Virus record (IMG/VR): IMGVR_UViG_2874945390_000005
Source of the DNA: a virus
Lineage: Duplodnaviria; Heunggongvirae; Uroviricota; Caudoviricetes
Direction: 5' to 3' (one strand)
DNA length: 23,639 bases
Each line of letters opens with the position of its first letter. The stretch's first letter is position 1. Positions 8,552 through 18,989 of the stretch are shown one piece after another. The notes under the pieces are model-generated. The model did no database searches. It was not told the DNA's origin and saw only the letters and a program-made list of their open reading frames with translations. Position numbers and translations under genes: made by a program.

Positions 8552-8718
8552 AGCGTGAGCGGTAATTACGCAGGCGCGGGTCGATATATTCAGGGAATTT
8601 GTCTATTGTCGCTTTTCGCAACGGTCTCATTGCTGTTTCGTTTGTTCGGTCCTTTGAGGTAGCCTGAGTTTAACGGACACTCCTTCCTGAAATAGAATGG
8701 CATCAGAAGGAGCTAATA

Positions 8719-9021
8719 ATGAGCAGAAAAACCCAACGTTACTCTAAAGAGTTCAAAGCCGAAGCTGTCAGAACGGTTCTTGAAAATCAACTTTCGATCA
8801 GTGAAGGCGCTTCCCGATTATCCCTTCCTGAAGGCACTTTAGGACAATGGGTTACCGCCGCCAGAAAAGGGCTCGGTACTCCTGGTTCCCGCACGGTGGC
8901 TGAACTGGAATCTGAAATTCTGCAACTGCGTAAGGCGTTAAATGAAGCTCGCCTTGAGCGAGATATATTAAAAAAAGCAACAGCGTATTTTGCACAGGAG
9001 TCGCTGAAAAATACGCGTTAG
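8719..9021 (+). CDS. IS600 OrfA
   Basis: 100-aa ORF MSRKTQRYSKEFKAEAVRTVLENQLSISEGASRLSLPEG...; A7G slippery run near 8970-8980. Confidence 0.9.
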   Translation: MSRKTQRYSKEFKAEAVRTVLENQLSISEGASRLSLPEGTLGQWVTAARKGLGTPGSRTVAELESEILQLRKALNEARLERDILKKATAYFAQESLKNTR

Positions 9022-9056
9022 TCGAACAATGGCGACAACAATTTCCCATTGAAGCG

Positions 9057-9875
9057 ATGTGTCAGGTATTTGGTGTATCCAGGAGCGGTTATTACAACTG
9101 GGTACAGCATGAACCCTCAGACAGAAAACAAAGTGATGAGCGGCTAAAACTGGAGATTAAGGTGGCACATATCCGCACTCGCGAAACATATGGAACCCGG
9201 CGGCTCCAGACGGAGCTGGCAGAGAATGGCATCATCGTTGGTCGTGACCGACTGGCACGTCTTCGTAAGGAGCTAAGGCTACGCTGTAAGCAGAAACGCA
9301 AGTTCAGAGCGACTACGAACCCGAACCACAATCTGCCAGTTGCGCCAAATCTGCTGAACCAGACGTTCGCTCCTACAGCACCAAATCAGGTCTGGGTGGC
9401 GGACCTGACGTATGTTGCCACACAGGAGGGATGGTTGTACCTCGCTGGCATCAAAGATGTTTATACGTGCGAAATTGTCGGCTACGCCATGGGAGAGCGC
9501 ATGACAAAAGAGCTGACAGGTAAAGCCCTGTTTATGGCGCTCAGGAGCCAGCGCCCACCTGCCGGGCTAATCCACCACTCTGATCGAGGTTCACAGTACT
9601 GCGCATACGATTACCGGGTCATACAGGAGCAGTTTGGTCTGAAAACATCAATGTCGCGTAAAGGTAACAGTTACGACAACGCTCCGATGGAAAGCTTCTG
9701 GGGAACGCTGAAAAATGAGAGCCTGAGCCACTATCGTTTTAATAACCGGGATGAAGCCATCTCAGTAATACGGGAATACATTGAGATTTTCTACAATCGT
9801 CAGCGTCGTCACTCTCGTCTGGGGAATATCTCCCCGGCAGCCTTCAGGGAAAAATATCATCAGATGGCTGCTTAA
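9057..9875 (+). CDS. IS600 OrfB (DDE transposase)
   Basis: 272-aa ORF with an IS3-family integrase core (...HHSDRGSQYCAYDYRVIQEQFGLKTSMSRKGNSYDNAPMESFWG...). Normally expressed as an OrfAB fusion by -1 frameshift. Confidence 0.9.
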   Translation: MCQVFGVSRSGYYNWVQHEPSDRKQSDERLKLEIKVAHIRTRETYGTRRLQTELAENGIIVGRDRLARLRKELRLRCKQKRKFRATTNPNHNLPVAPNLLNQTFAPTAPNQVWVADLTYVATQEGWLYLAGIKDVYTCEIVGYAMGERMTKELTGKALFMALRSQRPPAGLIHHSDRGSQYCAYDYRVIQEQFGLKTSMSRKGNSYDNAPMESFWGTLKNESLSHYRFNNRDEAISVIREYIEIFYNRQRRHSRLGNISPAAFREKYHQMAA

Positions 9876-10282
9876 AAAAAGAACAAATGGTAGTGTCCGC
9901 TATTGCCAGTACACCTCATTGACTTGATGAAATTGTGCACTTCAACCGAGGTTTGCAGCGGCGCGTTACTGAAGCCTTTAGGCCACACCCCGAACTTCTC
10001 TTTGTAGGTATGAGCGCACCATCCGTCACTCAGTGGCTTACCTGTCGCGTTGCGGTAATTCTGATAGCCCTTGATCTCACTCCACCACCGCTGTTTTTCC
10101 TCGCGGCTGTATTCGCGTTTCCCTTTGTTTACGCGAGAGAGTTTTCGATCGCGGTCTGTTGCCACATCATCGCCACCAAGAGGACGAAACCCACATTTGG
10201 GACACATGTGTACACCAGCAGGCTTCATGAAGTGGCATTTGGGGCATTCTCTGGGAAGTTTTTCAGCTTTTAACCTCGCCAC
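9872..10282 (-). CDS. Zinc-ribbon protein (CPKC...CPKC), 3' end replaced by IS600 sequence; native part 9919..10282
   Basis: GTG start at 10282-10280 lies 20 nt upstream of the helicase stop. MARLKAEKLPRECPKCHFMKPAGVHMCPKCGF... The last 15 codons are read from the IS600 right end. Confidence 0.5.
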   Translation of the reverse strand: MARLKAEKLPRECPKCHFMKPAGVHMCPKCGFRPLGGDDVATDRDRKLSRVNKGKREYSREEKQRWWSEIKGYQNYRNATGKPLSDGWCAHTYKEKFGVWPKGFSNAPLQTSVEVHNFIKSMRCTGNSGHYHLFFF

Positions 10283-16758: not shown

Positions 16759-17439
16759 TTTTCAGGACCAAAAAAATGTTCGATATCGTTGAATTTGTTA
16801 AGCAGCAGGAGCGCTTTTTCTGCAAGGCATTAACTGAACCGACGCTGACATGGGCGAAGGAAAGTCAGTTTGCAATTCAGCAATTCCAGAAAAATGCCTT
16901 TCTGGCTGACACAGCACGGGCAAATCTGCCCAGCGCACAGAACGCTATCATCAATGTTGCCGCCATCGGCATAACCCTGAACCCGGCCAGCAAGCTGGCG
17001 TATCTGGTCCCACGAAAAAAGGCTGTATGCCTGGATATCAGTTATATGGGGCTTCTGCATCTGGCACAGGTCACAGGAGCCATTCAGTGGGGGCAATGCA
17101 AACTTGTTTACGAGAAGGACATTTACGAGTCCAACGGTATTGACTGCGCCCCCACGCACAAATACAACCCATTCGTAGACAGGGGCGCACGCATTGGCGG
17201 TTATAGTGTCGTAAAAACATCCGAAGGCGACTATCTGACCGAAGAGATGAGCAACAGGGAAATCGAGGTCATCAGGGCGTGCAGCAAAGCCGGAAATAAC
17301 GGAGGAAGTAGCCCGTGGGATAGTTTCCCCGATGAAATGGCCAGAAAAGCCATTGTTAAGCGCGCCAGCAAATACTGAGGTAGCCTGAGTTTAACGGACA
17401 CTCCTTCCTGAAATAGAATGGCATCAGAAGGAGCTAATA

Positions 17440-17742
17440 ATGAGCAGAAAAACCCAACGTTACTCTAAAGAGTTCAAAGCCGAAGCTGTCAGAACGGTTC
17501 TTGAAAATCAACTTTCGATCAGTGAAGGCGCTTCCCGATTATCCCTTCCTGAAGGCACTTTAGGACAATGGGTTACCGCCGCCAGAAAAGGGCTCGGTAC
17601 TCCTGGTTCCCGCACGGTGGCTGAACTGGAATCTGAAATTCTGCAACTGCGTAAGGCGTTAAATGAAGCTCGCCTTGAGCGAGATATATTAAAAAAAGCA
17701 ACAGCGTATTTTGCACAGGAGTCGCTGAAAAATACGCGTTAG
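17440..17742 (+). CDS. IS600 OrfA (copy 2)
   Basis: Protein identical to the copy 1 OrfA. Confidence 0.9.
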   Translation: MSRKTQRYSKEFKAEAVRTVLENQLSISEGASRLSLPEGTLGQWVTAARKGLGTPGSRTVAELESEILQLRKALNEARLERDILKKATAYFAQESLKNTR

Positions 17743-17777
17743 TCGAACAATGGCGACAACAATTTCCCATTGAAGCG

Positions 17778-18596
17778 ATGTGTCAGGTATTTGGTGTATC
17801 CAGGAGCGGTTATTACAACTGGGTACAGCATGAACCCTCAGACAGAAAACAAAGTGATGAGCGGCTAAAACTGGAGATTAAGGTGGCACATATCCGCACT
17901 CGCGAAACATATGGAACCCGGCGGCTCCAGACGGAGCTGGCAGAGAATGGCATCATCGTTGGTCGTGACCGACTGGCACGTCTTCGTAAGGAGCTAAGGC
18001 TACGCTGTAAGCAGAAACGCAAGTTCAGAGCGACTACGAACCCGAACCACAATCTGCCAGTTGCGCCAAATCTGCTGAACCAGACGTTCGCTCCTACAGC
18101 ACCAAATCAGGTCTGGGTGGCGGACCTGACGTATGTTGCCACACAGGAGGGATGGTTGTACCTCGCTGGCATCAAAGATGTTTATACGTGCGAAATTGTC
18201 GGCTACGCCATGGGAGAGCGCATGACAAAAGAGCTGACAGGTAAAGCCCTGTTTATGGCGCTCAGGAGCCAGCGCCCACCTGCCGGGCTAATCCACCACT
18301 CTGATCGAGGTTCACAGTACTGCGCATACGATTACCGGGTCATACAGGAGCAGTTTGGTCTGAAAACATCAATGTCGCGTAAAGGTAACAGTTACGACAA
18401 CGCTCCGATGGAAAGCTTCTGGGGAACGCTGAAAAATGAGAGCCTGAGCCACTATCGTTTTAATAACCGGGATGAAGCCATCTCAGTAATACGGGAATAC
18501 ATTGAGATTTTCTACAATCGTCAGCGTCGTCACTCTCGTCTGGGGAATATCTCCCCGGCAGCCTTCAGGGAAAAATATCATCAGATGGCTGCTTAA
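17778..18596 (+). CDS. IS600 OrfB (copy 2)
   Basis: Protein identical to the copy 1 OrfB. Confidence 0.9.
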   Translation: MCQVFGVSRSGYYNWVQHEPSDRKQSDERLKLEIKVAHIRTRETYGTRRLQTELAENGIIVGRDRLARLRKELRLRCKQKRKFRATTNPNHNLPVAPNLLNQTFAPTAPNQVWVADLTYVATQEGWLYLAGIKDVYTCEIVGYAMGERMTKELTGKALFMALRSQRPPAGLIHHSDRGSQYCAYDYRVIQEQFGLKTSMSRKGNSYDNAPMESFWGTLKNESLSHYRFNNRDEAISVIREYIEIFYNRQRRHSRLGNISPAAFREKYHQMAA

Positions 18597-18989
18597 AAAA
18601 AGAACAAATGGTAGTGTCCGCTATTGCCAGTACACCTCATACTGGCCCCGTCGCGATCGCCTGGATACAGCTATCGACTACCTGAACACTCAGGCCGGTG
18701 AAGGTATCATCCTGAATGCTGATCACATCCCTGAGCGTGACGTCACTCCCGCATCAGATGAGATTATCAATGAGATCACTCAGGCAATCACCGAAATTAA
18801 CAAGACATGGGATGACCTGCTTCCCTTATGTTCCAAAACATTCCGTCGCACGATTGCATCACATGAATATCTCAGTCAGGAAGAAGCTGTCAAAACGCTT
18901 GATTTTGTCAAAAAGAAAGCTGCCAGAAACAAGGCCACGGCGGAAGCGAAAATTCACGCCACCACGGAAAATAGCAGCGAGGCCGTGTC

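Follow-up and report, generated by a model that had tools for sequence, protein, structure and literature searches.

Organization of the locus

The window considered here is a 23,639-nucleotide stretch of DNA filed as a Caudoviricetes virus (IMG/VR record IMGVR_UViG_2874945390_000005). Its host chromosome is the 5.1-Mb chromosome of Shigella boydii CP026836.1 (GCA_002950135.1), a record that is named S. boydii in PMC12817139. The window is a decayed lambda-like prophage riddled with insertion sequences (ISs), of which it holds six: IS630, IS2 with a nested IS629, two copies of IS600 and IS911 (Table 1). The two IS600 copies are the subject of this text. The right-hand copy (copy 2) is a simple insertion into recT, whereas the left-hand copy (copy 1) is a rearrangement junction that was probably produced by an inversion of the early region within one prophage.

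The early-region genes to the right of copy 1 are arranged in the order helicase, cro, cI, hicAB, rha, kilR, gamL, recT, exo and DUF669. The genes for helicase, RecT, GamL and DUF669 are broken and that for Rha probably is too, while cI, cro, hicAB, kilR and exo are intact. To the left of copy 1 lies an arm that ends in the integrase gene (int). One 23.6-kb Shigella region can probably be traced to pieces of a single lambda-like prophage together with a second element that adjoins rutG.

Table 1. Insertion sequences and genes of the prophage remnant, in window coordinates
Feature	Position	Strand	Remarks
IS630	2710-3857		inside one of two paralogous ORF6N/antirepressor-like genes
IS2	5167-7807		simple insertion, 5-bp target duplication TCCAG; clips 3' end of ead/DUF551 gene
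IS629	6310-7615		nested in IS2 orfA, duplication GGG
abc2 3' remnant (anti-RecBCD gene)	8529-8654	-	last 41 codons (57-97) and stop, nucleotides 172-297
IS600 copy 1	8655-9918	+	flanks CTT and TTG, without target duplication; joins abc2 3' remnant to truncated helicase gene
DEAD/DEAH helicase pseudogene	9919-11378	-	without last 20 codons (61 bp); +1 T frameshift at 10268
Block, probably inverted	9919-20371		relative to int-xis-ead-DUF2737-abc2' arm
cro-like repressor gene	12273-12512	-	79 amino acids
cI repressor gene	12618-13337	+	239 amino acids, S24 peptidase family; 98.7% identical to cI of O103:H2 Stx2a prophage
hicB-hicA toxin-antitoxin pair	13744-14339	-	intact; between cI and rha
ash/rha regulator gene	15022-15880	+	frameshifted by extra T at 15319; intact (296 amino acids) in sister strains
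recT 5' part	16776-17375	+	codons 1-200
TAC target duplication of copy 2	left 17373-17375, right 18640-18642		single TAC at empty site of L042
IS600 copy 2	17376-18639	+	simple insertion in recT; 100% identical to copy 1
recT 3' part	18640-18993	+	codons 200-316 and stop; first codon is the duplicated TAC
Exonuclease gene and DUF669	18990-20265	+	YqaJ family, 229 amino acids; then frameshifted DUF669 single-strand-binding-like gene
abc2 5' fragment	20290-20371	+	first 27 codons; opposite strand to 3' remnant; cut by IS911
IS911	20372-21620 (end approximate)	-	no target duplication; second rearrangement junction

The IS600 pair

Both elements are IS600, a member of the IS3 family. A reading made earlier from the sequence alone had described two identical copies in direct orientation, and this is what was found: each is 1264 bp long and they are 100% identical. 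They are separated by 7457 bp, and the whole unit measures 9985 bp. The identity ends exactly at the left ends of the copies and extends by one chance base (T) beyond their right ends. The elements match copies annotated in RefSeq E. coli as 'IS3-like element IS600 family transposase, programmed frameshift' over their full length at about 98.8%. Copy 1 contains orfA (8719-9021) and orfB (9057-9875) with an A7G slippery run at 8970-8977, and the IS600 genes have Pfam matches to HTH_Tnp_1 and rve (DDE). The ends of the element, TGAGGTAGCC... and ...GTACACCTCA, have the form TG...CA and align as imperfect inverted repeats. In length, genes, frameshift site and ends, the window copies are like IS600 of Shigella and E. 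coli, with no difference of substance.

The two copies differ in their surroundings. The flanks of copy 1 read ...GGTCCTT-IS600-TTGACTTG and those of copy 2 read ...CAAATAC-IS600-TACTGGCC. Simple insertions of IS600 carry a 3-bp target duplication, which is TAC at copy 2, CTC/CTC in E. coli O26 and ATT/ATT at a recT insertion reconstructed from a sister strain (L039, described below). Neither IS600 site of the window is shared by any complete E. coli genome searched.

Copy 2 is a recent insertion into recT

Removal of copy 2 together with one TAC restores the RecT open reading frame (ORF) (316/333 amino acids; Pfam RecT, E = 2.5e-23). When the IS-less sequence was used as a query, 126 complete E. 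coli genomes spanned the restored site in one unbroken alignment (98.8%). A sister contig, L042 (QWSV01000142.1), is 99.9% identical to the window and has an intact recT with a single TAC. L042 keeps the IS600-helicase junction and the abc2-IS911 junction of the window and is without copy 2. By these comparisons copy 2 is a simple insertion that is recent and confined to this lineage. It would have arrived by copy-and-paste into recT, leaving the usual 3-bp duplication. The empty sites in the E. coli genomes and in L042, with the restoration of RecT, bear out the simple insertion that had been proposed from the sequence.

Copy 1 joins genes of two phage operons

Re-examination of the boundaries of copy 1 left its flanks unmatched (CTT versus TTG), as had been noticed before, and no 3-bp duplication is present. 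The right flank, from 9919 onward, is a 96.8% match to the DEAD/DEAH-box helicase gene of Shiga toxin (Stx)-type lambdoid prophages. It sets in right at the edge of the IS, which leaves the gene 61 bp (20 codons) short of its stop. The sequence-only reading had seen a zinc-ribbon ORF whose 3' end was replaced by IS sequence; a gene is indeed truncated at the IS, but the ORF (9872-10282) is the C-terminal part, in another frame, of this 506-amino-acid helicase. Exact-protein look-ups of the 136-amino-acid helicase-IS fusion ORF, and of a 236-amino-acid gene-IS911 fusion ORF farther right, gave no match, probably because of differing start-codon calls.

The possible 3' gene remnant to the left of copy 1 proved to be real. 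It is the end of abc2, matching Pfam PF11043 (Anti-RecBCD_p2) over positions 59-97 of 97 (E = 6.7e-13) as well as PHROG 656, and it maps to 9362-9487 of the E. coli prophage locus L020. Beyond it, DUF2737, ead/DUF551, antirepressor-like genes, xis and int also lie on the minus strand. The homology of this left flank to intact E. coli prophages stops exactly at the end of copy 1.

The beginning of abc2 lies about 10 kb to the right, directly after DUF669, where its 27 residues are identical to the N-terminus of L020 Abc2. Both abc2 fragments map to the one L020 gene at about 90-92% nucleotide identity and with identical protein residues, and 89 bp are missing between them. The order DUF669-abc2-DUF2737-ead occurs in 22 E. 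coli genomes in one place that covers at least 80% of the reconstructed query (about 87-92% identity). The leftward (PL) operon of intact lambdoid prophages includes abc2, and the divergent rightward (PR) operon includes the helicase gene. In the window the abc2 remnant and the helicase gene that flank copy 1 are both on the minus strand. Copy 1 is a rearrangement junction, as had been suggested: each flank derives from a different phage operon, and on both sides the similarity to intact relatives breaks off where the IS begins. The two halves of abc2 lie at opposite ends of 9919-20371 and on opposite strands; therefore, this block is most likely inverted. The sequence-only reading was right about copy 2 and about the junction at copy 1 but missed both the inversion and the fact that IS911, not copy 2, forms the other boundary of the block.

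Other IS600 copies have been found near this gene. In O26 strains, IS600 copies near abc2 sit in DUF2737 or erf. The 30 bp to the left of copy 1 (window 8625-8654) resemble the left flank of an unrelated IS600 of E. coli O121 (L019 3998-4027; ...TTCGG.TC.T-IS600), a copy that is likewise without a target duplication (CTA versus CAG). The likeness could be chance or a weak target preference of IS600. Extension of the match over these 30 bp was considered as a sign of a shared insertion site and was rejected as a chance similarity of the flanks.

The early-region block

The window is colinear from 9919 to 20248 with the early region of the Stx2a prophage of E. coli O103:H2 strain 12009 (91-98% nucleotide identity), apart from an insert between cI and rha. 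For the last 123 bp of the block, which contain the abc2 5' fragment, the matches are to other E. coli prophages (L020, for example), and the switch from Stx-like to L020-like sequence lies inside DUF669 at about 20248. The int arm of the window, unlike that of the Stx2a-type prophage, is of a lambda/P22-like type. At the position of hicAB the O103:H2 prophage has genes for an Eco57I-like methylase and a BsuBI/PstI-type endonuclease, plus two more genes, one of them encoding a Panacea domain. Thus, hicAB in one phage and a restriction-modification module with two additional genes in the other occupy a swapped accessory ('moron') slot. No stx gene is present in the early region of the window, in contrast to the Stx2a-type prophage.

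Several of the disrupted genes carry point lesions when compared with the sister strains or with E. coli relatives. The gamL gene has a C to T nonsense change (CAG to TAG) at 16537 and DUF669 is frameshifted at about 20131. The additional T in the helicase gene and the gamL nonsense change are real because both are also present in L042, an independent short-read contig; errors of the long-read assembly were rejected as their source on the same ground. The additional T in rha is found in this assembly only and could be an assembly or sequencing error. An exact look-up of the 199-amino-acid Rha protein, which the frameshift makes unique to this genome, gave no relatives.

Exchange of IS600 flanks in sister strains

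Five related assemblies (L037-L041, with L024 and L039 representing the same genome) carry the same locus in another arrangement. The sister assemblies include PSSP01000001.1, CP026824.1, CP027027.1 and UYIS01000022.1. In these assemblies the copy-2 site is empty and another IS600 lies in recT 254 bp upstream in the opposite orientation. The sub-block 9919-17123 is flipped between the inverted IS600 copies, and all carry the junction AAT-IS600-TTG-helicase'. L039 has both reciprocal junctions, AAT-IS600-TTG-helicase' and CTT-IS600-AAT. When its flanks are swapped back, the result is the copy-1 junction of the window (CTT-IS600-TTG) plus a simple insertion in recT with the duplication ATT at 17121-17123. 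This flank swap means that the copy-1 junction is ancestral to the clade, that IS600 copies at the locus do recombine, and that mismatched flanks are the signature of IS600-by-IS600 events. The sister strains thus provide a clean natural example of IS600 flank-swapping.

In L039 an IS30 is present in both IS600 copies (L039 1249-3735 and 10950-13436), at the same site just after the A7G run and with a 2-bp duplication (AC). The shared site leaves open two routes, a one-step duplicative inversion or mobilization in trans followed by recombination. A further IS30 lies inside IS911 in the same strain (L024 11697-12917). In L037, L038, L040 and L041, IS30 or IS911 joins take the place of the abc2 3'/DUF2737 region, which suggests further IS30-by-IS30 recombination.

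A probable inversion within one prophage

These observations are probably best explained if copy 1 is one of two junctions of an early-region inversion within one prophage, the reciprocal junction having since been lost. In the proposed ancestor the order would have been helicase-...-cro, then cI-...-recT-exo-DUF669-abc2-DUF2737-ead-...-xis-int. A first IS600 would have inserted 61 bp before the helicase stop (target TTG) and a second, in the opposite orientation, at abc2 nucleotides 171/172 (target AAG, which is CTT on the plus strand of the window). Recombination between the two would have flipped the intervening DNA and created abc2-3'...CTT-IS600-TTG...helicase', which is copy 1. The reciprocal junction, with abc2 5' joined to helicase 3'-primase, would read ...CAGGAGAAG-IS600-CAAAGACC.... 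IS911 would then have inserted at abc2 nucleotide 82, and an outward deletion would have joined the locus to the element adjoining rutG, removing the reciprocal junction and the rest of the prophage. Copy 1 is the older copy, common to the sister clade, and copy 2 inserted later. Copy 1 would be without a duplication because its flanks were exchanged after insertion.

The arrangement of the window agrees with such an inversion in that copy 1 has one flank from each of the two sites (abc2 and helicase) and the block is reversed relative to the arm from abc2 3' to int. The sister strains, with their exact flank swaps and inverted 9919-17123 segment, show that the proposed process operates at this locus. 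Both abc2 pieces are likely to come from one gene of one prophage, judging from how they align to L020. Two IS600 copies presumably mediated the first inversion, and they seem to have been joined by homologous (RecA-type) recombination and not by transposase.

IS911 marks the other boundary of the block. It has no matching flanks (AAA versus CAT/TAC), and the tip of its left inverted repeat (IRL) reads ...CACTTTA, not ...CACTTCA, so that the terminal CA reads TA or is lost. Through it, nucleotide 82 of abc2 is linked to a gene of an unrelated element; this gene has lost about 131 bp. That element has HNH, Dam, resolvase, tape-measure and serine-recombinase genes and adjoins rutG both in E. coli and here. 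The reciprocal junction is likely to have been lost rather than relocated.

Several points weigh against this history. The reciprocal junction of abc2 5', IS600 and helicase 3' was not found, and IS911 sits at the expected place; the helicase 3' end, the primase gene and abc2 nucleotides 83-171 are in none of the Shigella loci fetched. Because the abc2 fragments leave a gap of 89 bp and the 5' one ends at IS911, not at IS600, an IS911 insertion and a deletion must be assumed as extra events. The closest intact abc2 relatives are only about 92% identical, so that the common origin of the fragments rests on parsimony. Finally, the sequence cannot separate homologous recombination from an intramolecular inversion made by transposase.

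Alternative explanations

The last of these points leads to the alternative that the IS600 transposase made the inversion directly: a single IS600 would have attacked a target in its own molecule, so that a second copy arose and the DNA in between was turned around. The flanks are equally compatible with this and with the two-step model, and the identical internal IS30 site in both inverted IS600 copies of L039 would be neatly explained by one-step duplicative inversion. However, the L039 arrangement can also be explained by an IS30-bearing IS600 that was mobilized in trans and then recombined. In addition, members of the IS3 family move by copy-out/paste-in with a circular intermediate; the outcome is a simple insertion rather than a donor-linked inversion, which counts against a direct role of the transposase. 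A transposase-made inversion is considered unlikely.

Alternatively, copy 1 could derive from IS600 recombination between two prophages, one P22/lambda-like (int...abc2) and one Stx-like (helicase...recT), through a large deletion or a chromosomal inversion. In favor of this view, the int arm looks like P22-like or lambda-like left arms and the block like Stx phages, the chromosome has undergone heavy rearrangement, with the remnant now between the ibsA/mdtA region and rutG, and the reciprocal junction is missing. This scenario, however, requires that two separate abc2 genes, 297 bp in length, were broken at points just 89 bp apart, and the abc2 fragments have exactly the orientation and positions expected from a single inversion. 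Moreover, L020-like sequence runs from about 20248 through abc2 5' and resumes in the abc2 3'-DUF2737-ead arm, as it would in one mosaic phage. An origin from two prophages is accordingly quite improbable, and inversion within one prophage remains the preferred reading.

A simple insertion followed by a small adjacent deletion that removed one copy of the duplication would account for the missing duplication at copy 1 and for the truncated genes on both sides. It is ruled out because genes of the PL and PR operons, which are normally divergent, share the minus strand here. More than 10 kb of phage DNA lies between the helicase 3' end and the genes after DUF669 in the O103:H2 prophage, which is colinear with the block; that prophage has no abc2, and the position of abc2 in the window phage is after DUF669. 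Intact relatives have a primase gene after the helicase gene, not abc2. The flank homologies and the colinearity with O103:H2 thus refute this explanation, which has hardly any probability left.

The least tenable explanation is that the IS600 pair and the DNA between them were inserted as one composite transposon: although identical direct copies bracket 7.4 kb and the outer ends form a valid pair of left and right inverted repeats (IRL/IRR), the sequences bordering the pair do not match (CTT versus TAC), the recT gene that copy 2 interrupts carries on beyond the right end, and L042 has copy 1 and the block without copy 2, so that the composite-transposon-like unit of the sequence-only reading is a formal resemblance only and is refuted as the origin of the pair.

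Deletion of the block between the direct copies, or its excision as a circle, is mechanistically plausible since perfect direct repeats of this length (1264 bp) and spacing (7457 bp) should lend themselves well to RecA-dependent deletion. The predicted 8.7-kb deletion, which would leave abc2 3'...CTT-IS600-TAC...recT 3', is present in none of the relatives examined; the event seen there is inversion between inverted IS600 copies. It has also been considered that the IS600-bracketed block (cI/cro, hicAB and rha) is a maintained, recombinationally active cassette that flips in natural populations, as the sister strains illustrate, and whose loss is counter-selected by hicAB, an idea that is decidedly doubtful. 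If it were true, each flip of the cassette would exchange the promoter, PR or PL, from which the int arm and the recombination genes are read. By analogy, hicAB may counter-select loss of the block through 'post-recombinational killing', the term used for the mvpAT toxin-antitoxin pair, which suppresses recovery of IS-mediated deletions on the Shigella virulence plasmid (PMC5629016). The repressor could be kept for immunity against incoming Stx-type phages.

Comparison with known systems

The phenomenon described here is IS-driven scrambling of a Shigella prophage remnant, which is already well known, and it involves no new kind of element or mechanism. IS600-by-IS600 recombination deletes the type III secretion system island on the Shigella virulence plasmid pINV (PMC5629016), and S. 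flexneri 5b has a chromosomal inversion that is associated with IS600 (PMC1550401). In S. dysenteriae 1 the Stx prophage is defective and carries IS600 (PMC7819885, where McDonough and Butterton 1999 are cited on amplification and deletion). The window resembles these Shigella inversions and deletions in that IS recombination rearranges or removes DNA, the flanks of the recombinants are swapped and the setting is a defective lambdoid prophage. It differs from them in the small size of the inverted segment (about 9 kb before copy 2 inserted) and its position within a single prophage, in the later replacement of one junction through an IS911 event, and in the second, nested flip of the sister strains.

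The composite transposons Tn10 and Tn5 likewise have two copies of one IS that bracket DNA. In the window, by contrast, the two direct copies came in separately, no target duplication surrounds the pair, and nothing points to their having moved together. The history of this locus can aid the reading of structural variation, prophage typing and short-read assembly breaks in S. boydii.

The rest of the prophage remnant

The remnant falls short of a functional lambdoid prophage, as its replication, late-regulation, lysis and structural genes are incomplete. Genes for primase, Q, lysis and structural proteins are absent from the window and from the 10 kb on either side. The integrase (in the region of window 1-1269) was called at only 231 amino acids, compared with 356-357 in relatives. 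The chromosomal neighbors to the left of the window (L030 17659-20564) are ibsA/mdtA, whereas the gene for an identical Xis protein in E. coli has ybhC or torS as neighbors. The present place of the remnant, between the mdtA and rutG regions, implies that the chromosome has been rearranged on a large scale. Look-ups of the Xis and HNH proteins returned only unrelated E. coli genomes and gave the type of attachment site and the identity of the third element.

The paralogous ORF6N/antirepressor-like genes, one of which is interrupted by IS630, are repeats of about 80% identity (window 1657-2010 and 3903-4262). The IS630 site is empty in sister strains L037-L041, where the gene is intact (255-260 amino acids). 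Two small repeats are also present. A 24-nucleotide AT-rich palindrome lies upstream of rha (window 15197-15232), and a 29-nucleotide inverted repeat (90% complementary, with a 32-nucleotide spacer) is found between genes of the rutG-side element (window 22217-22306).

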